This document shows, one piece after another, positions 14,147-38,305 of a stretch of DNA of 64,000 nt. This DNA is from Cetorhinus maximus. Taxonomy: Eukaryota. Within the stretch, counting starts at the first letter, position 1. Each line of letters begins with the position of its first letter. The stretch covers positions 34,596,001 to 34,660,000 of the forward strand of contig NC_135883.1 in NCBI RefSeq assembly GCF_964194155.1. Direction: 5' to 3'. Below the pieces are notes generated by a model. The model was not told the DNA's origin. It saw only the letters and a list, made by a program, of their open reading frames with translations, and searched no databases. Made by a program: the position numbers and the translations under genes.

Positions 14147-15105
14147 GGCCTGGATCTCCTGTGGACTGGTAATCTCGTCAGGTTGCCACTCCACTCAAAC
14201 ATTTTCCCTGCCTTGATGTTGGTCCACATTTCTTGCCAGGTTTTCTGAGCCCGCTTTACCAGGAATGTAGGAGCACAGCATCCATCGGTACACTCAGTCG
14301 CAGCGCTGTTGAATTGGGGGAAGATGGGACATGCTCCTTTTCTATGGCATCAGCTGCTGTATGGTAAGTTTAAAGATTCAGTTCGAGTGTCAGTGAATGG
14401 GTGAATATTAAAATGGGTGAATAAGTGAGTGAGTGAATTGTTAGGGTGGGTGAGGTTGGCATGTGGGTGAGGGCAGCAGGTGGGTGAGGTGGGCAGGTGG
14501 GTTAGGTGGGTCCACGGGCAGGCGGATGGTCGAGGGTACAGCATGTTCAGGAGGGATAGTTGGGTTGGATCAGAGGGAGTAGTCGGGTGGATGGGAAGGG
14601 TGGTATGGGATATTGCTACTTCTATTGTCAGTCAGATTAAACACCTCTACCCAATCTCCCCTTAACCTTCTTTGCTGTGAGGAGAACAACGCTAGCTTCT
14701 CTCGCCTCTCCAGGGAGTTGGGAGTGTAGTTGGGAGGGTGTCAGGAGGATAGCCGGAGGGTGGGGGGGTCAGCGGAGGAGTTGGGTAGTCAGTGTGAATG
14801 ATGTGCTGGGGTGGGGCTCAGTTGCATGGTTACCGAGGAGTTAGACTAGGTTTTTCTTTCTAACATTTCCTGAGTAACTATCCAGGTAACTAAATCGGAA
14901 CTGTCTGAAGTTTCCGGCTCTTGCTCAGAATCTGAGATATTCGTGGAGGGTCCCAGGAAGCAGAGGAATTGTCCATCGGAAGTTCAGACTCCCCAGGCAA
15001 GTCCTACAGAGCCCTTGCATTGGGACTTCTGAGGTGCCCTAATACGCATCTTGGGTTGTTCGTCTACCTGATCTCCAGCAATCCAGAGACTGGAAGATTA
15101 GGACC
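14147..15105. mobile_element. Harbinger-type MITE with G-rich interior
   Basis: Termini ggcctggatctcc / ggaagattaggacc, AAT on both flanks (3-bp TSD). Confidence 0.65.
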
Positions 15106-16370
15106 AATAATTCAACTGAATTGAATTCTTACTTAATCATTTTGACATTTCACAAATATTGTTAGTTACAAGCTAGGTTTAGAGAATAATGGAAACATAT
15201 CGACCATGAAAGTAAATTAAAACATTTTTGATAACAAGTATAATTGCAGGTAACAGATTTGGGGGAATAAGGGAAAAAAGAACATTGTCTTTTATAAAGT
15301 GATAGGTGAATTATATAATAAATATCATATCTGTGGGGCATCAGAAAAGTATGTGAAGCTAGAAATTAACAGATGTGCACTTAATAGCTGATTTATTCAA
15401 ATATTTTTGGTGACCTTTGCCCAACTTTGTGCCAACTGTACGTAAGCCAGAAATCCGTATTGGGGATGATTGCCCATTTTTACCCTGGCACTGCTTAAGG
15501 TACTCCACTGCTAACCTGCTAATCTCTACTCTAGGGGTTCTCACTAGAAGTGCAGTATACAATAGGAGCAGTAATGCTACTCCTGATTGGGTTACTACCA
15601 CTTGGAGGGAGGGAAGATAATTGTGTGATGTTGCAGCTTTTAAAAGGTTCAGGTAGTTAAAGAGGGGGGCATCAATTTTTCAACAGTGGCAAGCACAATT
15701 ATAAGATGTTTTGGGAGGTGGTATTGGGGGGTTGTTGGGGGTGGGGTGGTAGGAAGCAGCTGAAAGGGCTCCCAGCTTCTGAGATATATCTTTAAAGGTA
15801 TTCCTGACTGGGATGAGGCTTAAAACACTTGTTGGTCGTTGAGGGCAGGAAGCCTCATGAAAGGGTTGTCCAGGCCATGTGGGTGGAGGTTGCTGAAGCA
15901 GTAAGTTCAACCCTGCACTACCAGTGCACACAGTGCAGGAACAGGTTCAATGAACTCACAATGGTGGCAAGGTAAGCTAAGACACTTGCCAGAATTTTTG
16001 GCTCGGTGCACGGGCGTTCGCCCGACACACCCGAGCATTAAATAAAGGGCATTGCCATCGGCCAAGCGTGCCAACGTCAACGCGCACTCTCGCGATATTT
16101 CGGTAAGCGCGCGCGATGAAGATGGAGGTGGGCCCGCCATTAATTAAGTGGGCAGTCAAGGCCCTTGAGACACCAATTGTCTTAGATTTTACGTGGCCCA
16201 TGCGATTTTCAGGCCGTTGCGCGGGCTAAACGGGCAGGCGGGCAGGCCACAGTTTCAAAAGCCTCATCCACGGGCAGGATAAGAAGGGTCAGTGGGCTTG
16301 TAAACGTGAGTAGTTTAGGATATAACTTGCTGCTGGTTGCTTGTGTGAATAGGGCATCTTCATTTGTGCA

Positions 16371-16737
16371 TAAAATTATGAGGGGTATAGATAGGGTAGA
16401 GAGGAAGGAACTTTTCCCCTTGGGTGGAGGGATCAATAACCAGGGGGCATAGATTTAGGGTAAGGGGCAGGAGGTTTAGAGGGGATGTGAGGAAGAATCT
16501 TTTCATCCAGAGGGTGGTGGGAATCTGGAAATCCCTGCCTGAAAGGGTGGTAGAGGCAGAAACCCTCATAACATTTAAGAAGTATTTGGATGTGCACTTA
16601 AGATGCCGTGGCATACAAGGCTATGGGCCTAGTGCTGGAAAATGGGATTAGAATAGTTAGGTACTTGTTTGACCGGTGCAGACTCGATGGGCCAAAGGGC
16701 CTTTTTCTATGCTGTAGATCTCTATGACTATGACTCT
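16371..16737 (+). mobile_element. CR1 3' fragment nested in H2
   Basis: EGSITRGHRFRVRGRRFRGDVRKNLFIQRVV, with tail ctctatgactatgactcta. Confidence 0.92.
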
Positions 16738-16869
16738 ATTTTGCTTCAGAGCTGCATTGACAGAAATAAGAGGCTTCAGTTCAGGACTCAGTGTTGCTTT
16801 CCAGGCCCCTGGAAGCTTCATACCATTTGGGGCCTTCTAGGTATCAGACAGCCTTCCTTTACCCTGGGA

Positions 16870-18106
16870 ATGGGGATCGTGGTCTCCATTGGAGGCACCT
16901 CCTCTGAGGGGGAAGAGAGGGCCACAAGAGGGAGGAGGCCAGGAGTCCATATTCAGCCTCCAGGGGAGCCACCTGTGGGAGGACAGGCGCAGGCACAAGG
17001 GGCACAGGGCCAAAAGGAAGTCCAAGGCGGAAGGGGCCGCAGAAGACGCCGCTATCCTGTTGCCAGGGTTTAGAGGCGGCGATGCAGCTACCTCAATATG
17101 TCTGAGGTACAATGCCGAAGGAGGCTCTGCCTCTTAAGGGAGACAGTGAACTCCATTTGTCAGAGGATCGGTCCTGAGATCAGTTCCAACTGTGTGAGCG
17201 GACACCCCATGCCAGTGGCTCTGAAGGTCACAGTGGCCCTCAACTTCTATGCCTCCAGCTCTTTCCAGGGGTCAGTGGGGGATCTATGTGGAGTCTCCCA
17301 GTCAGCTGTCCACAGTTGCGTCAAGCTGGTGACAGAGGCTCTGTTCAGGCAGGTATTGACTTTCATTCACTACTGTACGGACGAGGCCAGACTGGCAGAG
17401 TGAGCCAGAGGCTTCGCAGTGATTGCTGGCTTCCCCCGCATCCAGGATTCAATAGACTGTACACATGTGGCCATCAAGGTACCAGCGGGTCAGCCGGGTA
17501 CCTTCGTCAACAGGAAGGGCTTCCACTCCATGAACGTGCAGATAGTGTGTGACCACAGGATGCAGATTCTACAAGTCTGTGCAAGGTACCCAGGCAGCTC
17601 CCATGACGCTTACATCCTCAGGCACTCCCAGGTGCCTGGGCTCTTCAGTGCTCCAGCCTGACTGGATGGATGGCTGCTGGGTGACAAGGGCTATCCCCTC
17701 AGAAGGTGGCTCATGTTGCCTCTCCGCCACCCAAGAACAGAGGCTGGGCAGCGTTACAATAGGAGCCACGTCTCCACAAGAGCGATGGTAGAGAGAACCA
17801 TAGGTCTTCTCAAGGTGCGCTTCCGATGCCTAGACCATTCAGGGGGCGCACTGCAATACCCCTCAAGGTCGTGTGTCACTGATAGTGGTTGCAGGCTGCA
17901 CTCTCCTCAATCTGGCGCAGGAAAGGGGGGACGCAGTGCAGGAAGAAGATCTTGATGCAGCTGCACAGGCAACAGACGATGAGTCTAATAGTGAGTCCGA
18001 GGACGAGCACGGTCAGGAGAACACTGAGGGCATAGACACTGACCTGGGTAACCTCCAGGGAGGCAGGGACATCCGGGGTGCTTTGATCCAACGCTCCTGT
18101 AGCTAG
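16870..18106 (+). pseudogene. Harbinger (HARBI1-like, DDE_Tnp_4) transposase with stops and frameshifts
   Basis: [79 protein letters not shown] and an acidic tail. Confidence 0.95.
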
Positions 18107-18420
18107 GCTTCCAAATAAGAACCACCACCACATGCCAGGGCTGCAGGCTCCATACTCGATCCCTGAAAGGACCAGTTCCTTGGTCAACAACATAGACTAT
18201 GTGCCTTTGCAATGAAGTTTAAGGAGAAACATGTCCATCATAACATCATGGTCTACCCTGCACCCACAGAACAAATGAAGCATCCAGAGGCCAGTTGCAC
18301 AAAAGCACATTTAATTAACTGGTGCCTGGCAAACATTCTACAAATTAACATTGACAGGTCTTTTCCATCACACCAATAAACACTGAACGGAAAAATGGGG
18401 GAAGCAAATATCACCCGTGA

Positions 18421-20290
18421 TCAGGTCATGTTGTGATTAAGGTGCTTTAAGTTTTCGTTTGTGGGTGCTATGTCTGGTGCTCCCCCATCGCTGGCACCTG
18501 CATTGGAGGCAGCCTGCTGACTCTGCTGACCTGTCGGCCTTGATGACTTTGGCAGGCGTCCTTTGGCCAGTGGAGCCTGTGCTGGATCCACCTGGGATGG
18601 AGTGGCCAGTGTCACGGCTGGCATCTCCCCAGTCACCGCAGCCTCATTGGATGCCATGGTCTCTGGCAGAGGGGTGGAGGAGCTGCTGCCATCATCCGGA
18701 ACGCCCTGAGAGGAGCCCGCAGAGACGACGGGCAGCTCGTGTGCCAACGTGAGGTCGCTCTGGACCTCCCTACTCACCATTGATGGTCGGGCACCTAGCT
18801 GGGACACTGGGTACCCAATTCATCTCCCACACTGACACTGACCAGCTGAGGTCATTGCCGGTGTGAGGGCTTGCAGGTCTGAGCGTTTCCCCAGGATTGA
18901 GTCCCTGGAGGAGCCTCTCCATGAGAGTTGCCACTCTCTCCATGGAGGAGGCATTGTGCTCAGCCATGAGGGTCAATGCATTGCTCACGCTCTGCAAGGA
19001 TTCCACCACAATGGAGACCATGGCACGCATTCCCTCATGTATCTCCGCCAGATCCTCCCGCACACCCTGCTGGACATCCAGCATCTGCTGCCTCATGGAC
19101 GATTCCAGAGGCACATCATCAGCCATCGACTAAGCATTGTCCTGGTCCCCAGCCGTCCTCTGACTGCCGGCACCCTGGGCACCCTCTGCTTCTGCCTGCA
19201 CCTCAAGCAACTTTGAAGTGCCCTCACCAATGTCTACCAAGATAGTAGCCAGCAATCTAATGCCCACTGAGGTGCTGGTATCTGTGCTGGTGCCTGCTTC
19301 AGAGAGCGGGTGTGATGCATATGCGTTTTGGTCAGTGTGGTCCTCGAGGGTCAGGGGCGGGCCTTCAGGCTCCTCATCCCGAAGGGCTGGTGGTGAGCCT
19401 AAAAAGAAGAACAAGGACATGTCATTAGTTGAAGTTGTCACACTGTTACTGTGCATGCCTGGCAGCCACATGAGACAGAGATATGCATCATGGTGCCCTA
19501 GTCTTTCCATTATCAGTGGGGATTCCAGGTTTGAGGCTCACATCAATAAAGAGAATACACTGGAATAGTTGCAAAAACCTACATTCTCACCTCAGTGCAC
19601 TGCACTCTTACCTCACTGTGGCACACCAACCTCACTGCGACTGCTTGACCTAGGCGCATGGCACCTGTAGATTTCCAGGGCCCCCTGCTCATAAGAAGTG
19701 AGGATTAGTAGGTGTGGCAGTTCCCCACAAGTATGCGACCTCTCTGAATTGTTATGGGATGTTTTCTCCTGAAAGGATAGGGGAGCACTGATCAGTCCAC
19801 TCTCTACCTGCAGCGCCATTGCAGCCTGGCCAACCCCACCTGAGGAACACCTCGCAGGGCTCAGCCGATTCGTGACCCTGGAGCTGCAAGACACTCAGTC
19901 CAAACAGCCAGGGCTCACCCCCTTGGCCAGATGCTGCCTCATTGACATTTGCCACTCACACTCTAACACCCGAGGTCCACAGGGGTTGGGCAGCTCTTAC
20001 CTGTTCTGCAAAGTGACCCATACCATCACGGTACTCACCCTTCCCGATCGCAGAGATTGTTGAAGTGCTTCTGGCACTGCACCCATGTGCGCCTCACCAC
20101 GCCGTGGCTGCTGACCCTGGATGTCACCTCCTTCCAGGCCTTTTTGGTGAGGTGGGGGGGCCTTCTCCTCCTGTCCCCAGGGACAAATGTTTCTCTCCTC
20201 GCTGCCACCTTCTCGAGGAGGGCACAGAGGCACTCATCAGAGAAACGTGGGGCCGAATGCCCCACCAACCTGTCCTCCCGCCTGCCATGT
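18421..20290 (-). pseudogene. Harbinger Myb/SANT (trihelix, NAIF1/MSANTD-like) gene, 3 exons (~20290-20039, 19768-19612, 19398-~18421)
   Basis: APRFSDECLCALLEKVAARRETF..KKAWKEVTSRVSSHGVVRRTWVQCQKHFNNL. Donors gtgagt and gtaaga with pyrimidine-rich acceptors. Confidence 0.88.
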
Positions 20291-22195
20291 CCGCCCGCAA
20301 CACTTTCCAACACGACTTCCGCGCACTTCGGTGGTGGCCTTCCAAGGGCTGCCGAGGCCACATTTGAATCGGTGGACATTGGGCACCCACTATGACCCAC
20401 CCCTTTGCACTCATTCCATAGCCGTGTCTTACGCTGGACGGGCCTTAATCGGCAAAACTCTGCCCCCTGGTGCCAGTACACATCCTCAATCAGTCATTTA
20501 ACCACTTGAACTCTTATTCTTTCTCTGTCATCAGCTGGGTGTTAGGAGAACTCATTTATGCGCCTCTGCGAACACTCAAGTGCCATTTTAATCAACCATT
20601 CTGTCAACTCTCACAGCCTGCACAAGGGGTCTTATAGTTTGGAAGTTCATTTAAAGGGGCTTTGCACTTGCATCACATGGGATGCATGTGCTCGTGGGGG
20701 GCACAAACAAGTGTTCTATGCCACTCATATTCCTTTATCAATGTGTTCTCTAACTGCAAATGGAAAGCTGGCACACAACTGCTAAGAGAGTGCTGCAACT
20801 TTGGGAGGACCACCAAGACTGCAAATTTGGAGTCAATATGAACAGGAAACTCTGCTATTGGTAGGTAGTCACATTGAGTGGGTGAAGTTGAAGGCAAAAT
20901 GGCCAGGGAAGGTTAGCAACAGCAGAAGTAATGTCACTTCATGGACATTTTTTCAAAGTGCCCTTACATTCAGCTGCTATTTCTTCGAGGAGAACTGTCA
21001 CTCTGTGCTCACCTAAACAAACTGTTCTGCATTTCACATCATATGGGGTGTGCTGGAGGAAGAGGCCAAACACTTCAATGGCCACCCAGCCACTTTCAGA
21101 GAAACAGCTGCTTCCACTTCCACATCTGAAACTTCAATCACGTCATCACCATCTCTGCTATGACAACTTGTCTGCCCAGAGACACTCGTTCAAGGAGTGG
21201 TTGCTAAGTCAGTTAAGGTTTTTTCTGGTTGAAGCACTCAGAACTAAGAAGGACCAGAAAATGAAAGGAATGGGGGGGATGTTGTTTGGCCTTGGACATT
21301 GGTGAAATGGCCCTTAGCTCTAGAGTCTAGGGCTCAGGAATTCAGAGGTCCAATCTTCAAAAGAACTATCATTAGGGAGCATCAATCTCATGTGCAGGCA
21401 ATGGAGATATTTCCAAGTAAATGGCTGAGATGATGAAGAAGTTGGTGATGTCTGTTATACATAGCTGCTAAAAAATGTGGGATGGTTCCCACAACATGAA
21501 GAACACCCTGTAGAAAGTGATAGTCAAGGAGATTTTTGCAGCAGCAGAAGGCACCATAAGGACGTACTAAGGATATTAGTAACTTCCAGACTGGCAGCCA
21601 CCACTATCCCAATGGCTCCCTTGAGGGTGGGGATGGGAGTGGTGTGCAGCTTGAATTACACATGAGCACAAGGTTTCGAAGATTCCAAGGTATTGTTGGG
21701 ACTCTGGTTTGTAATGACACCACCCAGTAGCATCTCTGCCCTGTCTTTGATAAATGGGAGGATCCATTATTTATAAGGCTGAGGAGAAACTCCTGTGTAA
21801 AGCTGGGGCTGGTAAAGCCAAGTGCTGAACAAATTTATAGCCCTTTGGCCGAAAGAGTTGCGGATTTTCCGATCCTAATGCATTCTGGTTTCAGACTAAT
21901 TGTGAGTTGCTTCGTTATTTTTTGCTAAATCATGACAACTTTTGGTGCTCTCGACATCACCAATAAAAAATACATTGCACCTATTTCAGCCATATTCGAG
22001 AATCCCACATCTAAGTTAAAGCAGGAACACAGAGAAAAACTCTGGCAAGAGAGCAGTGGAATGACCTGGAAATAAGTTTCACAGCCAGTGTCCAATGGGA
22101 TCTTTACTTGGACAGAATCTCAGTCTGCCCCAAATACGCTACTGTGTATTAAAAGAGGGTGTGCTCCTCATAAGGGGACTTCCTTCTTTCCTTAC

Positions 22196-22413: not shown

Positions 22414-25400
22414 GGCTACAAATATTAGGCGCTGTAATGCCGATTAATTTTTATAAGTGTTAGTCCAGTAGCAAAATAGTGTCCTCACTGTTTCCAGCCC
22501 TTGTTGAGGGCATTAGCGCAGGGATTATGAGTATGTGCTGGAGTCATGCAGAGTAGGAAGATTATGATGTCAGTCAGTTTGCAACATGGATGCCAGCACG
22601 GCCATTTTTGACCTCATCTCTCTAGTTACCACACTGTCCCAACATGCGCAGATGACCATGCTTGCATGAGCACAAAGGACCCCCCTCCCTCCCATCAGTG
22701 TTATTTTAAGGGGTTATCAACAACTTGCAGGTTGATTGCTAATGACTTTCTACTGGCTCTGTTTGCATTTGAGGAAGTGCTGGGTGTTTGGAGGAGTTGG
22801 TTACAGTTGGTGAAGACTGCAGGGAATGATCTTGCATATGAGGAAGGTGTTGGTTGTTTTTGCAGGGTCTCTGGGCACACCACTTTCTCCCAGTCATGGG
22901 CTGCATTGGAACAATCCCCCTTGGGCTGTGGCAAGAGATGATGCAGAGACTGCAAAGTGGAAGAGAAGCAGCTCGCACAGGGAGGAGGAGGGGGAGAAGG
23001 GCTCTCTGCAAGTGGCCTTATCCACCTGGCGTATTCTGGGACCATTTTCCTTATCCCCACTTAAGCCAGGAGCAGTTTGTTCGGCACCTGCAATTCACAA
23101 AGGAGGTGCTCGCAGAACTCTGCTACCTCTTGGAACCAGGCATGCAGCCTTAGAGCTGTGTGATGACAGCACTGCCTGTGAATGTGAAGTTGACTGTGGC
23201 CTTCTGAATAGAGAGAAGCAGACAGAATGCGCGCAAGGCTTTTCCAGGATAGCAGGCTTCCACATAGTGCAGGAAGCCTTCGACTACACATTTGGCTTTG
23301 TAGGCACTGCAGTGCTGAGATGTTCCATAACCCCTAGAGTTGCCTCTCAGTGTGCAGTTGGTATGTGATTATGCTTCGCACATCATGCTGAAAAATGCCA
23401 ACTATCCTGGCAGCAGTCATAATGCATTCATTCTGTACCAGTCTGTTGCTTTATCCATGTTTCACCCAGAGTGGCTGCTTGGTGATGAGGACTATTCACT
23501 CAACACTTGGCTGACTCACCTCTGTAATCCAAACACACGCGCTCACCACTCATAGAGTGAGCTATGCTGCCATAAGGAACATCACTGCGCAGATAATTGG
23601 GATACTGAAGCAGAGGTTTCTCCTGTCTCGATGGTTCTGGTGGAGCCCTCCTATAGTCACTGGAGCAGATACCTGAGTGTGTGGTGGCTTGCTACATCCT
23701 CCAGAAGCTGGCAATCATGACGGCATAGCCCTTGCTACCACAGATTTGGCAATGACTTCATGAAAAGGAGGGGAGGAGGCAGTCGGCACATGCATGTTCC
23801 AGGTGGCTGTCCATGTGCGTCTAATCTGACTGCGGTTCTCCTGAATACAACTCCAGATCAGCATTGTCCAGCAGTCCCATACCTTACCATCTTCAGCTAC
23901 GGACCGTCACAGTGTCCTCTTGGCCAGATTACTAAAATGGAAGCCACCAAAAAACAACCATTCTATACCAACTTTATACAACAAAACATCTAATAACCTG
24001 CACAAACTCAACTTATTACCCTTGTGCATTCCCTTGGTGTCTGTCATACGGGGACCTTTACCTGGCCTAAAGCTGGGATGTGATGCTACCCTGGTGGCTG
24101 CATCATGGCTGATGAAAGATTGCTGATTTTCACTGAGGAGAATGCAGATGGCCTTACAGGGCGACCTCAAGCAGCTTAGGGCCTAGAAGCACTGCACCAC
24201 CTTGGCATGGGTAGCAGCATTCTGGGCTGGCCAGCTGAAAGGCAGTGGCAGTGCTGGGAATGCTTTCATCCTGACAGAAGACTGCAGGTTTGTGCCCAAC
24301 TGAGCTTTGTCACTCTCCTGGTTATGTCACCTCAGCAATCTCTATTGATCTGATGGAGGACGGATTGCTGGACAGCCTTAAGACACTCAAAGCCCCTTTA
24401 AGCATTGAAATGGTCAAGATGGCAGCTGTCTGACCCTGCATGGGAACAAGCTGTGTGATTTCATGACCTCAGTCACTACAGTACACAGACGTTGTAGCTT
24501 CTGCTTGTGCTGCAATGGAAGCTGAGGTATCAGCCATCAGATGCTGCATCGTGGTTGAGGTCTGCAAGTGTTCTCATGGTCTTGACCACCACTTCCACAT
24601 GGGAAAGGGTAGGCTCCAAGCTCTGCATGAAGCTCTGTGCCAAGCTGGAACCAGATTCCCCTTCACAGTGCCAGCAGGCCTTTTAGCATGCTTCTCAATA
24701 TACCAAAAGCATTTCTGTTTGCGCACCCATCAACCTTTTTCTATATGCTATTCCATAAAAGTCTCCATCTGAGTCTTCTGCAGCAGAGCTCATCGGTGAG
24801 CTAATCCACCTGGGAGCTGACACACGTGCCACCCATTCCCCCGGCCTAACTGCAGGGCACTCATGCCTGATGAATCAGCATATGCAGATACTGCCTCTGT
24901 GCTACCATCTATAGTTTGTGCAGTTGCAGTTTCTGAGCTGTAGTTGCAAGTGTCAGATTGAGTGATAGTGTTTTTTTCTCATCAGTCTCTTCTCTTTCTA
25001 GGCCTTCACCTGAAAGTATAAAGGCAGTGGGCATGGTTGAGTTGAGAGAAGTGGGAGAAAGCAAGGAGTGAAGGGTTACACCATCTGCAGCTTGTACATC
25101 ATAACATATTACGGGTGGGATGTGAGAAGGTGGATTACAGTCACCTTCAATGGTTTCATCCATGCCTCTGGCCTCAGTGATGGCCACTCCAGTTATTTCC
25201 AACACCGTCTCCTCCATGGGGGTGGGTGCATGTGGTTGTGCCTGTCCTCACCATTATTTTTTTTTTATTCATTCATGGGATGTGGGTGTCACTGGCTGGG
25301 CCAGCATTTATTGCCCATCCCTAGTTGCCCTTGAGAAGGTGGTGGTGAGCTGCCTTCTTGAACCGCTGCAGTCCATGTGGTGTAGGTACTGTAGGAAGGG

Positions 25401-27238
25401 ACCTCCAGGATTTTGACCCAGCGACAGTGAAGGAACAGCAATATATTTCCAAGTCAAGATGGTGAGTGACTTGGAGGGGAACTTCCAGGTGGTGGTGTTC
25501 CCATCTATCTGCTGCCCTTGTCCTTCTAGATGGGAGGGGTCGTGGGTTTGGGAGATGCTGTCAAAGGAGCCTTATTGAATTCCTGCAGTGCATCTTGTAG
25601 ATGGTACACACTGCTGCTACTGTGCGTCGGTGGTGGAGGGAGTGAATGTTTGTGGATGTGGTGCCAATCAAGCAGGCTGCTTTGTCCTGGATGGTGTCCA
25701 GCTTCTTGAGTGTTGTGGGAGCTGCACTCATCCAGGCAAGTGGAGAGTATTCCATCACACTCCTGACTTGTGCCTTGTAGATAGTGGACAGGCTTTGGGG
25801 AGTCAAGAGGTGAGTTACTCTTTGCACGATTCCTAGCCTCTGACCTGCTCTTGTAGCAACTGTATTTATATGGCTAGTCCAGTTCAGTTTCAGGTCAATT
25901 GTAACTGCCAGGATGTTGATAGTGGGGGATTCAGTGGTGGTAATGCCATTGAACATCAAGTTGGATTCTCTCTTGTTGGAGATGGTCACTGCCTGACACT
26001 TGTAAGGTGTGGATTTAATTGCCACTTGTCAGCCCAGGCCTGGATATTGTCCAGGTCTTGCTGCATTTGGACATGGACTGCTTCAGTATCTGAGGAGTCG
26101 CGAATGGTGCTGAACATTGTGCAATCATCAGCGAACACCCCCACTTTGGACCTTATGATAGAAGGAATGTCATTGATGAAGCAGTTGAAGACTGTTGGGC
26201 CGAGGACACTACCATGAGGAACTCCTGCAGTGATGTCCTGGAGCTGAGATGACTGACCTCCAACAACCACAACCATCTTCCTTTGTGCTAGGTATGACTC
26301 CAACCAACAGAGAGTTTTCCCCCCGATTCCCATTGACTCCAGTTTTGCGAGGGCTCATTGATGCCACACTCTGTCAAATGCGGCCTTGGTGTCAAGGGCA
26401 GTCACTCTCACCTCAGCTCGGGAGTTCAGCTCCTTTGTCAATGTTTGAACCAAGGCTGTTAAGAGGTCAGGAGCTGAGTGGCCCTGGAAGAACACAAACT
26501 GGGCGTCAGTGAGCAGGCTATTGCTAAGCAAATGTTGCTTGATAACACTGTTGATGACCCCTTCCATTACTTTACTGATGATGGAGAGTAGACTAATGGG
26601 GCGGTAATTGGCTGGGTTGGATTTGTCCTGCTTTTTGTGTACAGGACATACCTGGGCAATTTTACACATAGTCGGGTAGATGCCAGTGTTGTAGCTGTAC
26701 TGGAACAGCTTGGCTAGGGGCGCAGCAAGTTCTGGAGCACAAGCCTTCAGTACTAGTGCTGGGTGCATGCCGGGCGCCCTGGGTGAGACAATGGAGATCT
26801 GCCTCATGATGTGGCCTCTTGCACCATTTCAAGAGCGCTTTCTAGTCTTCAAACTCGACCTTCAGCAACTCCTGCTGCATGTGTGAAGGCCCTGGTGAGT
26901 ATAAAAGACATGAATTAGTATTGGCAAAGTAAGAATGTTGCAGCTTATCATTGTGAAGATGATCATATTTCACTTGCTATTGGAGTCAGCATTAGTGAGT
27001 GTATGATATGTGAATCGTTGATACTTAATTGTGTCACAAGATAGCTGGGAGTTTCCCATCCCTGAGGGCCAGGACACTGAAATTCCACTGATGGCCACCA
27101 TCTCCTCCGCTGTATTTGCTAATTGGGAAATGTGTGGAGACCCAGCTCCAGCTCCCTCCTTCTCTCTCCTGTTCTGTGCTCTGTTCTATGCAGAAAAGAG
27201 CAAATCTTTGCATTACTATACAGGTTAAAATTGTAGCC
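22414..27238 (+). mobile_element. Older Harbinger transposon (H3), interrupted by a LINE
   Basis: TIR-like ggctacaaatatta / ttaaaattgtagcc. Transposase remnants 22850-23750 (LQFTKEVLAELCYLL; SVQLVCD..YPGSSHNAFIL..WLLGDEDY). Decayed Myb-like sequence on minus near 27030-27200. Confidence 0.8.
25257..26755 (-). mobile_element. 5'-truncated CR1-clade LINE (second family), RT to poly-A tail
   Basis: VLKACAPELAAPLAKLF..NYRPISLLSIISKVME, AGVPHGSVLGP..FADDC, IYKAQVRSVMEYS. T-run at 25257. Confidence 0.93.
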
Positions 27239-27589
27239 TGCATGACGAGAGTGAGTCCATTGGTGGGTGAATTCCCTGGATGATTCTCCCTGTTCCTTTT
27301 CCTTCTTTTCACTGGGTGGACAGGATTAAAATCTTGTTTTACACATGGGGAGTTGGTGGATTTCTTAATTTCAAAGATCAAAACCGTCTACTTTTCCATG
27401 CTTTACACGTGTTTAAGAGCCAATAATGGATAAATGCAAGTTAACCCTGCTCGACTCTCCTCAAATGTATAAATTATGGGACAAAATAAATGTTATGCAT
27501 CTTTGCATATTCTTTACCTGGCATAACATGATGTATATCTCTTTATTCTGATAAGCATAATTTAAAACCGGTAACTCAGAGGCACCCCC

Positions 27590-27881
27590 ATTCCAGGTCT
27601 GATGTCTCTTGCGCATCCCCGATTTTAATTGTTTCATTATTGGTGACTGTGTTTTCAGCTGGCAAGGCCCTAAGCTCTGCAATTGCCTTCTGAAATGTCT
27701 TTGCCTCTCTACCTCTCTTTTCTCCTTTAAGGCATTCCTTGAAACCTCTTCTTTTTGACCAAGATTTAAGTTACCTGCTCTAATACATGGCTCGGTGTCG
27801 AATTTTGTTCGATAATGCACCTGTGAAACGCCTTGGGATGTTTTACTAGATTAAAGGCACTATATAAATGCATGTTGTTGT
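27590..27881 (+). mobile_element. L2 LINE 3' end
   Basis: ctttttgaccaag..cctgtgaaacgccttgggatgttttac..aaaggcactatataaatgcatgttgttgt. Confidence 0.8.
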
Positions 27882-28781
27882 AAATGAAAATTGTTTCAGA
27901 ATAACAGCATAGCTCTTTTGATCAACACAGCAAAGTTAATTTTTAATGCTAGATTTTCATCTATTTCTTTGTGCTCAGTGATTTCAGGGTAAGTATCACC
28001 AGCCTCTAATGATAAACAGTGGTACGTTATAGTTGACAAATGGTCTTGACTTGCAACGCTACTGAACAAACTAATGTGCTTTCTACGTTAATGACAATGC
28101 TGGAAACTCTGCTTATCTGCTAGGAAAAAGCATTTGAGCTTATCAGTTTTAAAGTTCAATTTTGGAAGGATACAAGTTTAGGCTTTCACAAAGCATGAAG
28201 CCAACACGAGGGACTGATTGTAAGCAAGAAATCATGCACATTTTAGATCAACGAAGCAGAAAAGAACTGACTACCCATCACTATCACTGCCCCCCACCTC
28301 CCCACCACCACCACCCCAGCCACCCCAATTTTATTGTATAACACAAATGCATCACTGATGATTAAACACATCCTTTGCTATTGGACTGGAAATGAATAAC
28401 AAATAGGAAAATATTGTGGTATTAGCATGTAGAGGGATGTTTCATTGCTCTGCACTTGGGTGAACTAGTATTGAGACGGCAACAATGGCATCACTCAGGA
28501 AGTCATTGAGGAAATGTCTGTCCACCTTTGTTTCTTTGCTGCCCTTTTTAAAAAAGAAGCAACATATCTAATTCTGAAGTTGTGTCAATTTGTCATGTTC
28601 AGATATTAGCAAATAAAGTCAAGCCTGTCCAACATTGGCTACATTGTATTGCAAATTCAGCACCACACTTGTCTGTACTTGTTGACTAACTTTGATGCAG
28701 TGGCTACCTGCAGTAATGTGATATAGTTTCCTCAGTATTATGATTTCAAAGTGCCCATGGGTAGTGTTAAATGGGGTGTAC

Positions 28782-28855
28782 CTACTTTTTGTGTTACGCT
28801 TCATGTTCTCAGTGGGCAATGCTCTGAGATTGTTAGACTCCATCTTTAAAAATCT
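28782..28855 (-). CDS. Possible host-gene exon (74 bp): RFLKMESNNLRALPTENMKRNTKS
   Basis: Acceptor ttatattatgttcag, donors AG|gtacac or A|gtaggt, single open frame. Connection to the other exons is uncertain. Confidence 0.3.
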
Positions 28856-29744
28856 CTGAACATAATATAAAATTTAACTGAATATTTTTGAGACAATAAA
28901 GAATTGAAATATACCTATAATATCTGTAGAAATTAGGAAATGTTTTGTGAAATATAAATAATAGTCGATTGCTGTTATTTTGGACATTGGACGAATGGAA
29001 GCAACTGTTGAAACAGATATCATTCATGTGGTAAAGTAGTGTCTTAGATTAATCTAACAATGGGATTTAACGTTTATGCTAGTTGAATCTGCGTTTAAAA
29101 GATTGGATCATAAATTTTTAGTGGTTTCCACCTAATATATTCAAATATAAAAGCTTAGAAATGAATTGAATTTCCAAATTTATTCAACTGAGATTTAGAA
29201 ATATATAAACTAAAACCTAAAACAGTTTTGTATCTATGAACACTGATTTATTCAAAATTCCAGCCTGATATTTAATTATACCATTTAAGCACAGTACCTC
29301 CAACTGAAAATAATTTCTGTTTGCTGTTTCCTTGCATCTGTTTAGGTCTAGAAATTATTAAAACGTACATGCTTTAATATTCCTGGAAAAATTTCACATT
29401 TGTCATATCAATTGAATAATTGGGAGATGTAACCGAAGACAAGTACAATGTAATGAAAAGACTTTGCTGAATTACTGGTGAACAGTATACCATTTCTTAT
29501 AATGGTCTGATGCTTTTTATTTATGTGATTTATAAATTCTAAGGGGTCTATTTAAACTTGTATTGTAACATGGGCAACGTCAAATTGTTCACCCATGACA
29601 CAATTCCATTGAATCAACTATATTGTAAATCGGCTCCTACAATTGGGCTGGAGGAGATGTACAGTGATAGAGCACATTATAACTGAACTACTACAGTGCA
29701 TGAGTTTATGCCAATCCCATCCTCCACAACTCCATTTGGCAGAA

Positions 29745-30656
29745 GGGTCAACACCTGCCCCTTTACTTCCCCCCTCCTCACCGTCCAAGGGCCCAAACAC
29801 TCCTTTCAAGTGAAGCAGCATTTCACTTGCACTTCCTTCAATTTAGTCTACTGCATTCGCTGCTCCCAATGCGGTCTCCTCTACACTGGAGAGACCAAAC
29901 ACAGACTGGGTGACTGCTTTGCAGAACACCTTCAGCCTGTCTGCAAGCATGACCCAGACCTTCCTGTCGCTTGCTATTTCAACACACCACCCTGCTCTCG
30001 TGCCCACATGTCTGTCCTTGGCCTGCTGCAATGTTTCAGTGAAGCTCAACACAAACTGGAGGAACAGCACCTCATCTTCCGATTAGGCACTTTACAGCCT
30101 TCCAGTCTTAACATTGAGTTAAATAACTTCAGATCATGAACTTTCTCCTCCATCCTCAATCCCTTTTTGATCCCCCTTTTTTCTAATAATAATTATATGT
30201 TTTTTATATATATATATATATCTTTCTTTTCCCACCAATTTCTATTATTACTTTTAAAATTTATTTCCATCCATTGTTTTATCTCCACCTTTTAGCCTAT
30301 TTCGATCCCTTCCCCCCATCCCACCCCCACTAGGGCTATCAGTCACTTGCTCATCCTGCTTTCTACTCTTAATGTCATCATTAGCACATCCTTTAGCTAA
30401 TATCATCACCATCAATACCACTTTGACTTTTTGTTTATGACATCTTTGGCAATCTCTCCTTTGCCTCCACCTATCACTGGCCCTTTATCCAGCTCTACCT
30501 GTCCCACCACCCTTAAACAGCTTATATTTCACCACATTTCTATTTCTCTTTAGTTCTGATGAAGAGTCATATGAACTTGAAACGTTAACTCTGTCTTCCT
30601 CTCCACAGATGCTGTCAGACCTGCTGAGTTTTTCCAGCAATTTTTGTTTTTGTTTC
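29745..30656 (+). mobile_element. Penelope-like element 3' part: GIY-YIG endonuclease plus pseudo-LTR
   Basis: FTCTSFNLVYCIRCSQCGLLYTGETKHRLGDCFAEH..LEEQHLIFRLGTLQPSSLN, then pyrimidine-rich UTR ending gacctgctgagtttttccagcaatttttgtttt. Confidence 0.92.
30552..30590 (+). ncRNA. Minimal type I hammerhead ribozyme core in Penelope pLTR
   Basis: agtt-CTGATGA-agagtcatatgaactt-GAAA-cgtt-aact. Stem I is agtt/aact and stem III is palindromic ACGT. Confidence 0.7.
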
Positions 30657-30769
30657 CTATGTACTATCATGTAGTTAGTGATCATAGATGTGTGGACATG
30701 GGCAGGTGCTGAGTGGAGATGAAACACTTAACTATACGAATGGACTGAAATTTGAAATTTGGCAAATGG

Positions 30770-31223
30770 GAAAAAGAAAGATTTGCATTTCATGCCCACC
30801 AGACATCCTAAAGCATTCGCAGCCAATGAAGCACTTGTTTTCTGAAGCGTAGTCACTGTTGTAGTGTAGGTATCGTGATAGTCAATATGCATACCGCAAG
30901 CTCCTACAAACAGCAATGTGATAAAGACCAGATAATCTGTTTAGGTGATGCTTTGTGAGGGATAAATATTGGTCAGGACACTGAGGATAATTCCAGAGCT
31001 CCTCTTTGAAGTAGAGCCATGGGATCTTGTACATCCAACCCGAGCAGGCAGAGTTTGACGTCTCATCTGAAAGACAGCACCTCTAACAGAGCAGCACTCC
31101 CTCAGTACAGCACCGGAGTGTGTCTGCTTTAATTTTGATTTGAGTTCTACCCCTGCAGTGGAACTTGAACCAAGAACCTTGTGACTCAGAAGTGAGAGTG
31201 CTAACATCTGAGCCATGGCTGAC
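30770..31223 (-). mobile_element. tRNA-headed Deu-domain SINE (SacSINE1-like), near full length
   Basis: Minus: gtcagccatggctcag (A box), ggttcaagttcc (B box), gagggagtgctgc..ggtgctgtctttcagatgagacgtc..aagatcccatggc (Deu core), L2-like tail. Confidence 0.85.
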
Positions 31224-34200
31224 ACCTACTCTTCTGCACCTCCACCTCATTGAATGGCCTGAAAGCAATTTTCAAGCTTGATATCTGTGAGATCAAATGA
31301 AACTATTAAGATTACTTACTATATAAAAAAAAACACAAAACTGTAGCCTTGGAAGCATCTGAAAGCTGAGTTTAGCAGAAGTATTTAATGAAAAGCTCGC
31401 TGAATAAACGGCGAGCAAAATCTTAGACTTCCTCACTGTTTGTCGATGCATACAGTTTGCATGATTTAATGACTGATATACCAATGCTTTCAAGTAATAA
31501 CATCAAGGGGCAAGGAGAACATTTTAACGAACCTTTCCTCTGGAGATTAGATGGATGGCAGCAAGCCTGAGGTACAATAGACTGGGAGAATGGGCTTGAT
31601 GTGCTGAGAAGCCTTTCTTTACTCATTCAGTGTTTATACATTCTTAAGGGAGAAGAAACTTTTATAAGCTTTGTTTAGAGAAAGCTTTTCCTTCAGTGGT
31701 GGATCAGCTTTTCCACCTCTAATCATAGAATGATCTGCTCCTGCACTCACTGCATGCAGTTCCAATGCAAACGTGCATGTGGCTTATGACTTTCATACTC
31801 CTTAACCTTCAATATGTTGAATAAATGACATCCAGATTGCTGCTTAGGACAGAAGCAAAATTCTCTGTAAAACTCGTAAATAAGCAAATTTTGGGAATTT
31901 TGCATGGCACTTCTATTGCAATAGCCAAATTACAACTAGACAGCCAGGGATAACATTTAATCTTATTTACTACGGCTGCTGTCTTTTCTGAAGTTGTTGA
32001 AAATCTTTGTTTTGGTTAAAAATATACAACATGGTTATGTAAATTACATTGAACTACTCCATTATTTCAATTGAAAGTGATGCTAAATTGTTTAAAATTA
32101 TGCATGACCTTTTTAGATTCCAAACAGAGAGAAGCTGCCAAACACTCTACTTAAAAACAATGCCCCTTTTAAATGTTATTAACTTCATGGTAGCCAACTG
32201 GGAATAATGGAGGGTGGTAAGTTAATTACTGTTTGAAGTGACTGGTTGATTTATCAATGGTATGTTATTGAGCAGAAAGCATAGGTTTACTCCGAACGTG
32301 GTGTAACAAACATTAATGTTCATAGGGTTTTGTATTTCTTCTGTATTAAAATTTACATTTACACTTTGGACTCGAACCCAGTGGTGGTAACAATCTGAAG
32401 AGAAGAGTCTGGTGCACAAGCAGACCATGTTGAATTGGTCTATTTGCATCATCAGGACATAGTTGGCTGGGACTAGCCATGCCTTAAAAGGCAGTGCACT
32501 AGTTATGAACAGGAGGAAAAACCAGCCGACAGAGACATAGGTACTAGGCCTGTGGTAAGTGTAGGAGTGAGGAAGAGGTTGGTGAGCAATGGATGGCAGT
32601 CTGTTGCACTGCTGCTCCTCCTGGCTCCTTATTCAGGTGAGCAATTTAAAAAAAAAATTACCTTTCTCATGGAAGCCCTTCAATGTTCCCTTTGAGGACT
32701 GCCTGTTTGGCTGCTTTATGAGAAAACACATGCATGCTGTGGTCAGTGGTGATCCAGTTTCTCAAAGAGGGCCGGAAACAGGCATCAGGCCCTGTAATTT
32801 GCATGCAGACTGCATGCATTTAATCCATGCAGAGAGCACAGTGTGACAAAAAGGTTTGGGCATTTCTTAGACTTCCCAAGTGCCCATCTTAAAAAATCAA
32901 CCAGACACCAAGTTGCCTGTTCCTGATGCCTGTCCAGTGGCTGCAGCTGGAAAGTCTTTTGTGTGAACGTTAGTTGAGAATAGGATCAATTGTGCTACAA
33001 CGCCCCTTTAGTCAAATAACATTCATTTGTTGTTTGCTGTCATTTGCTGTTGTTGTTGTGGCAACATTCATTGTTTAGACAAATGCACGTAAGATTAGTT
33101 ACATTTATAGGGCCTATGGAATCATATTCCCGCATAGGCATCACATTCAGGAAAGGGAAGAAAGGAATATAAGTTTCATCTAGTCCACAATGATAAGCTC
33201 TGTAAGAATCTGATTTTTTGATTCTCAGGTTGGAACATTGCATCTTTGGGTGAGAGAGAGCGAGAAAGCAGACTTGCATGGCTAAGAGGGTTTGGAAAAA
33301 ATAGTGAAAAGTTGGGAGACAGAGGATCCCACTTGGTTCATTTCATTTCTATTTCTGGATGCTTAGATTTTACTTTTTATTTAGCTGTGTACTGGTAGAA
33401 GTTTGATTTGATAGCAAAACACAGAATAAGTCACTGGAGCCTTACCTATTGCTTTTATTAAATGGGATACCAGCATCTGCAAGTCATGCACCATTAACAG
33501 CTTTGTTGTTCCCCATTAGCTCACAACACCCCCAGTCCAAGAAGCTGTTAGTGTGAGGAAGCTCAGTTTTAATATTCATTAATAGTACCACTCACTGTAC
33601 ATTGTATTAACTGCAGGACTGAAGTGTTGAAAACACACAGCACTATGAACTGCGTAGTATTTGGATAATACTGCAAAGGATAAGATGTGATCGGTTTCTT
33701 CTCTGTTTTGATTTATTGATGTAAAGCATAGGTGAACCTGGGGCAGAATTTTACGCCTCGCGGGCAGACACGTGCCCGACCCGGTCGGGTGTAAAATAGT
33801 GCGAGAAGGCATCGGGCGAGTGTCCCATTGTCATCCCGCATGCGCATAATCTTCAGGTCGGCGGGCACGCGTGGGTGTCAGAGCCGCGCTTGCCATCAAT
33901 TAAAAATCCACTTAAGGCCATTAAAAACCCAATTGAACCTGATTTTACATTGCCCATGCGATTTCGCGCTCATTGCATGGGGCAAAACAGGCAGGTGGGT
34001 GGCCCACATTTTGCAAAACCTCATCCAAGGGCGGGATAAAAAGGATCAGCAGCATTGCCAGTGTGAGTAGTGAGGAGTTTAGGAGATAGTTGGCTGCTGG
34101 TTGCTTATTTAAACTTGACAGCTCCACCTATGTTCTGAGCTTCATTCTTAGCATTTCTAGGCTTCATTCCAGGACACATTGGTGTCTCCAAGGCCCCCGG

Positions 34201-34257
34201 AAGATTTTGACCATGTGGACCCCTCCAGGTATCAGAGACCCTTCTGTTACCCTGGTA

Positions 34258-35152
34258 ATGGGGATTGTGGTCTTCACTGGAGGTGCCTGCTCTGAGGAGG
34301 AACAGAGGGGCAGGAGGGAGAGGAGGCCAGGCAGCTTCCAGGGGAGCGACCTGTGGGAGGAGAGGCACAGGCAGAAGGGCTGCAGGGCCAGCAGGAAGTC
34401 CAAGGCGGAAGGGGCCGCAGAAGACGCCACTATCCTGCTGTCCGGGGTACAGGCAGCGATGCAACCAACTCAATGTGTCTGAGGTGCAATGCCGAAGGTG
34501 GCTCCGCCTCTCCAGGGAGACCGTGACCTCCTTTGGTCAGATGACTGGGCCCCTAGTGGCTCTGAAGGTCACAGTGGCCCTCAAATTCTATGCCTCCGGC
34601 TCTTTCCAGAGCTCAGTGGGGGATTTGTGTGGAGTGTCACGATCAGCTGTCCACAGTTGGGTCAAGCTGGTGATAGAAGCTCTGTTCAGGTGGGTAATGA
34701 CATTTATTCATTTCCGCATGGACGAGGCCAGCCAGGCTGAGCGAGCCAGAGGCTTAGCAGCGATTTCTGGCTTCCCCCCGCGTCCAGGGTGCAATAGACT
34801 GTACACATGTGGCCATCAAGGCGCTAGCAGGTGAGCCCGGTGCCTTCGTCAACAGGAAGGGCTTCCACTCCATGAACGTGCAGATAGTGTGTGATCACAG
34901 GATGCAGATTCTACAAGCCTGTGCAAGGTACCCAGGCAGCTCCCTTGACATCCTCAGACACTCTCAGGTGCTGAGGCTATTCAGTGCTCCTGGATGGATG
35001 GATGGCTGCTGGGTGACAAGGACTATCTGTTGAAAAGGTGGCTTATGACGCCTCTCTGCCACCCAAGAACTGAGGCACAGTAGCATTATAATAGGAGTCA
35101 TGCCTCCAGAAGGGCGGTGATAGAGAGGACCATAAGTCTTCTGAAGATGTGC
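34258..35152 (+). pseudogene. Harbinger transposase, truncated at TISLLKMC by a LINE
   Basis: VALKVTVALKFYASGSFQSSVGDLCGVS and FVNRKGFHSMNVQIVCDHRMQILQACARYPGSS. Confidence 0.92.
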
Positions 35153-36675
35153 TTTTTAAAAAATTCACTCATGGGATGTGGACCTCGCTGGCTAGGCCAG
35201 TATTTATTACCCATCCCTAATTGCCCTTGCGAAGGTGGTGGCAAGCTGCCTTCTTGAACTGCTGCAGTCCATGTGGTGTAGGTACACCCACAGTGCTGTT
35301 AGGAAGGGAGTTCCAGGATTTTGATCCAGCGATAGTGAAGGAACAGCAATGTATTTCCAAACCACGATGGTGAGTGACTTGGAGGGGAACTTCCAGGTGA
35401 TGGTGTTCCCACTTATCTGCTGCCCTTGCCCTTATAGATAGTAGTGGTCATGGGTTTGGAAGGTGCTGTCTAAGGAGCCTTGGTGAATTTCTACAGTGCA
35501 TCTTGTAGGTGATACACACCGCTGCTACTGTGCATTGGCAGTGGAGGGAGTGAATGTTTGTGCATGTGATACCAATCAAGCGGGCTGCTTTGTCCTGGAT
35601 GGTTTCAAGTTTCATGAGTGTTTTGGGCACTGCACTCATCCAGACAAGCGGAGAGAATTCCATCACACTCCTGACTTGTGCCTTGTAGATGGTGGACGGG
35701 CTTTGGGAGTCAGGAGGCGAGTTACTTGTTGGACGATTCCTAGCCTCTGACCTGCTCTTATAGCCACAGTATTTATATGGCTAGTCCAGTTCAGTTTCTG
35801 GTCAATGGTAACCCCCAGGATGTTGATAGTGGGGGATTCAGTGATGGCTATGCCAATGAACATAAAGGGGTGATGGTTGGATTCTCTCTTGTTGGAGATG
35901 GTCATTGCCTGACACTTGTGTGGTATGAATGTTACTTGCCACTTGTCAGCCCAAGCCTGGATATTGTCCAGGTCTTGCTGAATTTGGACATGGACTACTT
36001 CAGTACCTGAGGAGTCGCGAATGGTGCTGAACATTGCACAATCATCAGCGAACATCCCCACTTCTGACCTTACAATGGAAGGAAGGTCATTGATGAAACA
36101 GCTGAAGACGGTTGGGCTGAGGACACTACCCTGAGGAACTCCTGCAGTGATGTCCTGGAGCTGAGATGACTGACCTCCAACAACCACAGCCATCTTCCTT
36201 TGTGTTAGATATGACTCCAACCAGTGGAGAGTTTTCCCCCTGATTCACATTGACTCCAGTTTTGCTAAGGCTCCTTGAAGCCACACTCGGTCAAATGCTG
36301 CCTTGATGTCACAGGCAGTCACTCTCACCTCACCTTGGGAATTCAGCTCTTTTGTCCATGTTTGAACCAAGGCTGTAATGAGGTCAGAAGCTGAGTGGCC
36401 CTGGCGGAACCCAAACTGGGCGTCAGTGAACAGGTTATTGCGAAGCAAGAGCCACTTGATAGCACTGTTGATGTCCCCTTCCATTACTTTACTGATGATC
36501 AAGAGTAGACTAATGGGGCGGTAATTGGCTGGGTTGGATTTGTCCTGCTTTTTGTGTACAGGACATACCTGGGCAATTTTACACATAGCCGGGTGGATGC
36601 CAATGTAGTAGCTGTACTTGAACAGCTTGGCTAGGGGCGCAGCAAGTTCTGGAGCACAAGCCTTCAGTACTAGTG
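35153..36675 (-). mobile_element. 5'-truncated CR1-clade LINE (same family as 25257-26755)
   Basis: ORFs 36245-36685, 35663-36220 and 35448-35666 carry RT motifs ([16 protein letters not shown]). Confidence 0.93.
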
Positions 36676-36819
36676 CTGGGTGCATGCCGGGTGCCCTGGT
36701 GAGACAATGGAGATCTGCCTCATGATGTCATCATCTTTCAATGATCAACGGGGAATCCAGTCTGGAGGCTCCCATCAATGACCAGACTACATAAGAATGT
36801 TTGCAACAATATTTGCTTA

Positions 36820-37165
36820 GGAGAGGAGGTGGCATAGTGGTGTTGTCGCTGGACCAGTAATCCAGAGACCCAAGGCAATGCTCCAGGGACCCGGGCCAAG
36901 GCAGATGGTGGAATTTCGATTCAATAAAAATCTGGGATTAAAAGTCTAATGATGACCATGAAACCATTTTTGATTATTGTAAAAACCCATCTGGTTCACT
37001 AATGCCCTTTAGGGAAGGAAACCTGCTATCCTTACCCGGTCTGGCCTGCACATGACTCCAGACCCACAGCAATGCGGTTGACTCTTAACTGCCCTCTGAA
37101 CAAGGGCAATTAGGGATGGGCAATAAATGCTGGCCCAGCCAGCCTCCATGAATGAATAAAAAGAA
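36820..37165 (+). mobile_element. tRNA-derived SINE sharing its 3' tail with the CR1-clade LINE
   Basis: A-box tggcatagtgg. Tail caagggcaattagggatgggcaataaatgctggccc..atgaatgaataaaa equals the LINE 3' end at 25260-25335 and 61700-61773. Confidence 0.85.
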
Positions 37166-37201
37166 ATCCGAAACTCTCAAATCTGTGCACTGCACTCTCA
37201 C

Positions 37202-37800
37202 CTTCGTCTGAATCCCCAGCCTCTCCACGACCGGCTAACTGAGGTGTATGGTGCCTTTCCAGCTCCAAGGCGTCCTGCTCGAATCTGGTTAGGATTAAGA
37301 GGTTAGCGGGGTCTCCGCCTGTCCATGACCTCTCAATGTTGTTAAGGGCTATCTCCTCCTGGAAGGACAGAGGAGCATGTCCATTGCAGCCTGGTCAACC
37401 CCACCTGAGGAACACCTTGCAGGGCACACGTGAGTCGTGGCCCTCGAGCTGTCATTGATAGCTGGCACTCAGATTCTAACACCCGTGAGCTCCACAGGGT
37501 TCTCCACACTGTTTCATGTTCTCCACACTGATCCATGCCAACATGGTACTCTCCCTTGCCGAGCGCGGCAGGTCAATAAATCTTTTGTGGCACTGCACCC
37601 ATGTGTGCCTCACAATGCCGCGGCTGCTTACCCAGACTGCCACTTCCTCCGAAGCTCTTTTTGTCAGGTGTGGTGGCCTCCTTCCATCTCTGGGTATGAT
37701 GGTGTCCCTCCTGGCAGCCAGCTGCTCCAGGAGGACTGCAAGGCACTCGTCCAAAAACCAGGTGGGCCAAGTACCCACCCGACCTGCCCTCCCGCCTGGC
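37202..37800 (-). pseudogene. Harbinger Myb/SANT gene exons 1-2 (H4)
   Basis: FLDECLAVLLEQLAARRDTIIPRDGRRPPHLTKRASEEVAVWVSSRGIVRHTWVQCHKRFIDL. Exon 2 at 37202-37358. Confidence 0.85.
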
Positions 37801-38099
37801 GTCTCCAGCTGCACTTGAGGCCATAACTTCGGTCTTCAGAACGCTGCAAATGTGTACTTCCCTGGCGGCCTTTAAGGAGCTGCCCATGCCGTTTTTTAAC
37901 TGCCCGTCAGGCCCCCACCCACGCCCGGCCCTGCCCGACCATTGGGAAGGTGCGTTTCACACTAGGCAGGCCTTAATTGGCCAGCCGGCATGAAATCTCG
38001 GTTAGGTCCGATTGCAGGCGGCGGCCCATTTCCCGACCGGTCACGGGCCTGCCGATCACGCGTTGCCACCAAGGGTAAAATTCAGGCTCTGATCTCTTA

Positions 38100-38305
38100 A
38101 CATAATTTCCCTCCTTCCTTGAATCTTTGCACCACTGTCCTTCATTAAGGCACCCTGAGAATCTGCCCCTTGACCAAGCTTTTAGTCACTTGTCCTTATG
38201 TTTCCTTCTTTGGCTGAATGTTGATTTTTGTTTGAATATGTTCCTGTGAAGCACCTTGCATATCTTGACATTAAAGGTACTATATTCATTCAAGTTGTTG
38301 TTGTA
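38100..38305 (+). mobile_element. L2 LINE 3' end
   Basis: ttgaccaagctttt..cctgtgaagcacctt..aaaggtactatattcattcaagttgttgttgt. Confidence 0.7.

Follow-up and report, generated by a model that had tools for sequence, protein, structure and literature searches.

Copying of a homologous donor into non-homologous sequence, finished by end-joining with deletion at the second end and complex breakpoints, has been described in mouse cells (PMC5104497, 2016). Non-allelic gene conversion between transposon copies has been treated by Fawcett and Innan (2019, PMC6598467), who report it to be raised for Alu copies lying within 10 kb of each other. Here we analyse a 64,000-nucleotide stretch of the Cetorhinus maximus genome (positions 34596001-34660000 of contig NC_135883.1 in the 3.99-Gb assembly), called the window below and numbered from its first letter. 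In it, two long interspersed nuclear elements (LINEs), A and B, sit 10 kb apart in two different Harbinger transposon fossils, H3 and H4, yet end at the same 5' base and continue with the same short non-LINE tag. We consider it probable that the 5' end of A together with its 50-bp tag is a copy of the 5' end of B and its flank, likely made long after both elements had inserted, in the course of break repair. The features on which this reading depends are as follows.

25257 to 26762, minus strand: LINE A, the presumed recipient, a 5'-truncated, decayed non-LTR retrotransposon with the 3' half of the reverse transcriptase (RT) region and the tail, with RVT_1 matches.
26585 to 26671, unstranded: homogenised block 1, matching B 36502-36588 at all 87 bp.
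26672 to 26702, unstranded: 31-bp mismatch patch with 5 mismatches between A and B.
26703 to 26762, unstranded: homogenised block 2, matching B 36620-36679 at all 60 bp and including the 5' truncation point of B.
26763 to 26812, unstranded: the 50-bp tag, apparently from H4 Myb intron 2 (source beside B at 36680-36728).
26813 to 26855, minus strand: segment of 43 bp that probably represents the Myb start-codon region of H3 itself; the minus strand reads M V Q E A.
35153 to 36679, minus strand: LINE B, the presumed donor, 5'-truncated and decayed, with an RVT_1 match.
36680 to 36810, minus strand: H4 Myb intron 2, in unbroken family homology, the first 49 bp being the tag source.

The preliminary description of this locus had the two LINEs end at one and the same base before a common tag, and global alignment bears this out. 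The ends themselves had been put at 26755 and 36675; longer copies of the family move them to 26762 and 36679. The tag is indeed shared, but its supposed length of about 55 bp shrinks to 50 bp in A and 49 bp in B, the first 7 supposed tag bases, GTGCTGG, being LINE sequence with one change. LINE sequence runs to 26762 (36679 in B) and Harbinger sequence starts at 26763 (36680), a join with no overlap and no microhomology. The assignment of the tag to Harbinger Myb intron 2 is upheld by a match of 36 of 46 positions to H2, an uninterrupted relative of H4 in the window, and by the exon layout read from the sequence. Homology to H4 goes on past 36730 and in A stops at 26812, as had been described.

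The same description had noted an abrupt change of identity along the two LINEs, and counting confirms it: there are 8 mismatches and 1 gap in the 250 columns from 26563 to 26812 (96.4% identity) and 14 mismatches in the adjacent 100 from 26463 to 26562 (86%). What had to be revised is the start of the tract, from about 26560 to 26585, and its shape, since it turned out to be discontinuous. Within the corrected limits, A and B agree at 173 of the last 178 bp of the LINE (97%) and at 1160 of 1300 in the body (89%), so that identity is not uniform but changes in a regional step (permutation p = 0.0006, corrected for the choice of cut point). Our reference set consisted of 120 LINE fragments not selected on the tract; 28 loci chosen for their likeness to A's tract were left out. 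The tract does not evolve more slowly than the body (11.5% versus 11.3% in 34 independent copies), and none of 288 independent pairs with a body divergence of 9-13% came down to the 2.8% that separates A and B in the tract, the mean being 11.4% and the lowest value 3.0%.

The rare alleles follow the same step. In the body, A carries 48 of its own and B 60, and 1 is shared, while in the tract the figures are 1, 3, and 4 (Fisher p = 0.0002). The four shared ones lie at 26595 and 26664 in block 1 and at 26744 and 26756 in block 2. One of them is the change from W to C already noticed in both elements (26664/36581), an allele that occurs in 4 of 52 copies chosen independently of the tract. Raw reads of a related species likewise show the shared bases at 26595 and 26664 to be minority alleles: of several thousand reads, about 90% have the alternative base. 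Among 78 other copies, 54 had none of the four alleles, 20 had one, and 4 had two; a common LINE subfamily as the source of the tract alleles was rejected, as no other copy exceeded two of the four. B is the best non-self match for A's tract (40 scored of 3129 candidates), whereas for the body neither A nor B is among the other's top 40 matches.

The tag bears on the direction of copying, and the arrangement of the mismatches on the shape of the tract. The tag matches the flank of B at 48 of 49 positions (1 substitution and 1 indel) against 45 of 48 for the closest of 28 family copies, and it shares with H4 the alleles at 26809, present in 1 of the 28 copies, and at 26812, present in 2. Since H4 continues in family homology beyond the tag and A does not, B would have given the tag and block 2, and LINE B thus appears as the donor, with the tag drawn from H4 itself. 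For block 1, homogenisation between A and B may have gone in either direction. The tract reads, in order, as 87 identical bases, 31 with 5 mismatches, 60 identical, and then the tag, with 6 substitutions and 1 indel between A and B in all. Five of the 6 substitutions would fall inside 31 bp by chance with p = 0.006, and at four of the five mismatches A carries the family base; the segment 26672-26702 is on this ground best taken as unconverted A sequence.

The junction between LINE and tag was found at these two places only. A 25-base junction motif, allowing up to 2 mismatches, gave three matches in the 4.0-Gb assembly, namely A, B, and one site that was rejected as a chance match in unrelated sequence; a control motif gave none. 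In the junction search, 40 of 62 candidates were scored, of which 2 span the junction and 38 match the tag only. Two real copies genome-wide are what local conversion leads one to expect, and the dispersed copies expected of a chimeric retroelement did not turn up. When both ends of the 44 LINE fragments of at least 200 bp in the 1.064 Mb around the window were examined, only A and B shared a junction. One weak further candidate (three matches, reaching base 72 of 90) was judged to be LINE overhang, and a systematic process is disfavoured by the single pair among the 44.

The copying was likely much later than the insertion of A. LINE A is old, with 48 rare private changes in 1300 bases and a best body match of 95% among 40 scored, and these private changes are distributed over the codon positions as 10:11:15, as for decay in place. 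With copying at the time of insertion, about 17 mismatches would be expected over 227 bp (twice A's private rate of 3.7%), while 6 were seen (P = 0.0024). A related species, organism B of our comparison, has the 3' junction of A in its public contigs, and the insertion of A is therefore common to both species, which differ at about 3.7% of positions (49 of 1308 bases over four contig pieces). At 26856, a contig of organism B runs 821-825 bp leftward into other sequence (two runs of one sample), so that the junction 26855|26856 differs between the species, most simply through a deletion in the present lineage, the alternative being an insertion in organism B.

At its right end the tract returns to H3 without homology. 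The overlap at this return junction is at most 1 base, as judged from diverged family copies. The 43-bp segment that follows is unique in the genome search; no near-identical source was found elsewhere in the genome or in 20 neighbouring stretches. With a short profile, whose columns were chosen after seeing the query, it was the highest-scoring match in the window and lay where expected, at a weak E value of 0.39, and a 614-column profile of the H3 family failed to detect it. In the nine H3-family copies that align (29 tested), the Myb start region lies 500-560 bp beyond the left breakpoint. Reading the 43-bp segment as H3's own Myb start region, about 0.5 kb of H3 was apparently deleted at the return junction; alternatively, the segment itself could be filler. 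A second junction, 26855|26856, follows 43 bp beyond the tag, where H3-like sequence meets another Harbinger family. The first test for family copies linking A's two flanks gave no matches, as the flanks are not contiguous. The heptamer CACCATT on both sides of A was rejected as a target-site duplication, being 9 bases away from the tag and fitting native Harbinger sequence on both sides, and no other duplication was found around A or B. This is uninformative, since the LINE family leaves none that can be detected: flank matches at 71 other family copies in the fetched loci were no more frequent than in shuffled pairs, that is, not above chance.

Taken together, the donor alleles in the tract (four in the LINE, two in the tag), the non-homologous exit, the donor intact past 36728, and the restriction of the junction to two copies agree with the one-ended copying of H4 and LINE B DNA into A that had been proposed. 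The name of gene conversion in its strict sense, with homology at both ends, has to be given up because the right end is non-homologous; 50 bp were gained, and H3 apparently lost about 0.5 kb. From the product we infer that the copying was initiated by a DNA break and used a DNA template. A break in the 5' part of LINE A would have been followed by invasion of the left broken end into LINE B, 89% identical and 10 kb away, in the manner of synthesis-dependent strand annealing (SDSA) or another one-ended process. The heteroduplex would have been corrected by mismatch repair in patches, with 26672-26702 left unconverted, and synthesis would have run through the end of B and 50 bp into the H4 Harbinger intron, whereupon the released strand may have been end-joined to the second end. 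Resection of that end would account for the loss of A's original 5' part and of some 0.5 kb of H3. Perhaps one more jump took place 43 bp later, as the 26855|26856 junction may have arisen in that event too. What resulted is a functionless repair scar, left by an ordinary, already known kind of repair accident.

Several observations weigh against this reading. The raw identity contrast is thin, as other copies reach up to 96% identity to A's tract, and the lowest independent pair, at 3.0%, comes close to the 2.8% of A and B. Within the tract's LINE portion the private changes are unevenly divided, 1 in A against 4 in B, and the discontinuity of the tract calls for patchy repair at the least, or else for two events. 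The 43-bp segment is weakly identified (E = 0.39) and is uncovered in organism B, where H3's start is expected. The overlap of at most 1 base differs from the microhomology or added bases described in PMC5104497. Finally, the filtered contigs of organisms A and B do not cover 26813-26855 or the LINE-tag junction, and no listed contig covers that junction even in runs that resemble the source, which by itself proves nothing.

Of the other explanations, the same end product would arise in two steps, by unequal crossover between A and B, giving a chimera plus H4, and a subsequent non-homologous exchange with an intact chromatid that restores the intervening DNA. Both LINEs do lie at deletion junctions and a second derived junction follows 43 bp on, but two events are required, the second with a break within 50 bp of the first, and the patchy tract is explained no more simply; we regard this course as unlikely. 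Quite improbable, in our estimate, is a patch templated by RNA, in which a break in the old A would have been primed on a putative read-through transcript of the H4 Myb promoter (from intron 2 into LINE B) and reverse-transcribed in cis. Here the polarity fits, as an RNA of minus-strand sequence could serve as template for extending A's plus strand to the right, the tag consists of intronic pre-mRNA sequence, and templated insertions at L1 5' ends have been reported (bioRxiv 10.1101/2024.08.27.596794). RNA is, however, unneeded; there is neither a spliced junction nor poly(A), H4 is decayed and without exon 3, and block 1, lying upstream of the unconverted patch, better suits heteroduplex DNA. 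If true, this would be a heritable fossil of transcript-templated break repair in the vertebrate germline. A jump of A's nascent complementary DNA to the DNA or RNA of B during integration would account for one homologous and one blunt end, and such template switches are known for L1, usually with templates of less than 250 bp (bioRxiv 10.1101/2024.08.27.596794). Tract and insertion would then be of equal age, which disagrees with the mismatch count given above (6 against about 17), with the age of A, and with the 3' junction common to organism B; moreover, the templates in those reports are found no farther than 15 bp from the site, not at 10 kb. We hold a switch at insertion to be very unlikely.

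A merging of B reads into A by the assembler is made conceivable by 89%-identical repeats 10 kb apart and by the lack of a listed contig spanning the LINE-tag junction. Such a chimera is highly improbable given the 6 substitutions and 1 indel that separate A and B in the tract, and in two runs of one sample the junction 26812|26813 is spanned, with 0 differences, by a short-read contig of 169 bp; its 30 bases on the tag side are one fewer than the 31 required by the search tool, and it comes from the closest-matching organism, D, perhaps the assembly's own sample. The preliminary description had offered 5' transduction as the alternative, that is, a Harbinger-promoted chimeric retroelement spreading with its own ATG. 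The H4 Myb gene does read into B in sense and the tag supplies an ATG in the RT frame, though this one (MRQISIV...) only in A, by way of an A-specific extra G at 26781; in B only a later one (MHPALVLK) is in frame. Transduction does not agree with a junction restricted to two copies, and the body of A is not a copy of that of B, matching at 1160 of 1300 positions and sharing 1 of B's 61 rare alleles. A tract younger than the insertion of A argues against it further. The frames opened by these ATGs reach a stop after 157 codons (A) or 160 codons (B) and include neither the endonuclease nor the beginning of the RT region, and the frames downstream are broken, so that a functional protein from A or B is not expected. 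A spreading chimeric element is scarcely credible. With this alternative set aside, one-ended copying of B's end and flank during break repair remains our preferred reading.

The window is crowded with decayed repeats, and neither LINE lies in a colinear Harbinger site. The remaining parts of the host elements are given below.

15990 to 20299, unstranded: H2, a Harbinger fossil, the uninterrupted relative of H4 used as comparison copy, supported by DDE_Tnp_4, Myb_DNA-bind_5, and family copies.
22900 to 25256, unstranded: left part of H3, a Harbinger fossil, with a provisional left limit; the plus strand has transposase pieces, the minus strand Myb intron 2 between exon 3 and a portion of exon 2.
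26856 to 27210, minus strand: piece of another Harbinger family with the start of Myb exon 3, intron 2, and exon 2; family copies align from about 26856.
33739 to 35152, plus strand: left part of H4, a Harbinger fossil, with transposase; DDE_Tnp_4, aligning to H2 16136-17822 and to family copies.
36816 to 37165, plus strand: insertion resembling a short interspersed nuclear element (SINE) inside H4 intron 2; H4 homology resumes at 37165.
37166 to 38100, minus strand: H4 Myb exons 2 and 1, decayed, aligning to H2 19574-20292.

In the domain scan, DDE_Tnp_4 was found in H2, H3 (at 23331-23552, in the left part, to the end of which, about 25256, family copies align), and H4, and Myb in H2, while 3 of 8 scanned frames had no match; all 4 scanned frames of LINEs A and B matched RVT_1. 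The Pfam scan of H4 37479-37835 gave no match, and the corresponding frame of H2 matches Myb_DNA-bind_5. LINE A contains stops and frameshifts, and its 5' end is fixed by family copies that extend beyond it. The Harbinger piece at 26856-27210 is truncated on its left side in this genome. LINE B occupies the place of 1.2-1.6 kb of H4 (the transposase end and Myb exon 3), as seen from the spacing in H2 17822-19452 and in four family copies; this loss is either associated with the insertion or a later deletion. The 3' end of the SINE-like insertion (37101-37166) matches the LINE tail at 25258-25333 in inverted orientation, and the two elements may resemble the HE1/HER1 pair. A HER1 LINE and HE1 SINE pair of sharks and rays is named in a table of PMC3747384.

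Further repeats were noted in and near the window. A 941-bp inverted copy with 93.5% identity links 11871-12810 with window-relative positions 88449-89378, 77 kb away, and is probably a young repeat subfamily. A 100-bp direct repeat (13844-13943 and 14613-14712, 770 bp apart) is 94% identical, and a 200-bp palindrome at 47251-47450 is 91% self-complementary, its short repeat basis recurring at 30545-30655. A degenerate tandem array with several self-matches of 73-81% lies at 56134-56603. Outside the window, at about 34,755,834-34,759,882 of the same contig, there is a 2.0-kb tandem duplication with 99.2% identity, which is either a recent duplication or an assembly artefact.

The locus thus offers a clean instance, found in nature, of a repair outcome that has been examined mainly in reporter systems, in which invasion of an 11%-diverged donor, patchy correction, and an exit by end-joining with deletion are combined in an event that apparently postdates a species split. 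It is also a warning that a 5' junction shared by two LINE copies need not mean transduction or a new chimeric family. No gene was created and this is the only such pair among 44 fragments in 1.06 Mb, so the wider effect looks small. Literature searches, which reached few subscription journals, turned up no paper describing the locus or a comparable event among sharks.

The closest described system is that of PMC5104497, which likewise shows a homologous donor copied into non-homology, end-joining, deletion at the second end, and two close breakpoints. There, the break was induced in mouse embryonic stem cells, the donor was the identical sister chromatid, the tracts were of kilobases, and microhomology or added bases were seen; here, the event is natural, the donor is about 11% diverged and 10 kb away, the 228-bp tract is patchy, and the overlap is at most 1 base. 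With the conversion treated in PMC6598467 the locus shares the local homogenisation of two neighbouring copies, but here the tract exits the element, 50 bp of flank are duplicated, and recipient DNA is deleted, so it is not two-ended. A short non-LINE segment at a LINE 5' end is also described in bioRxiv 10.1101/2024.08.27.596794, where a step resembling SDSA is held responsible; those segments are made during integration, for the most part from templates no more than 15 bp away, whereas the present one would be post-insertion, with its donor 10 kb off. Short nearby segments (here of 50 bp and 43 bp) between two junctions and a net deletion recall fork stalling and template switching or microhomology-mediated break-induced replication (FoSTeS/MMBIR; Verma and Greenberg 2016, PMC4888836), from which the locus differs in that the first switch appears driven by homology and the later junctions are without demonstrated microhomology.

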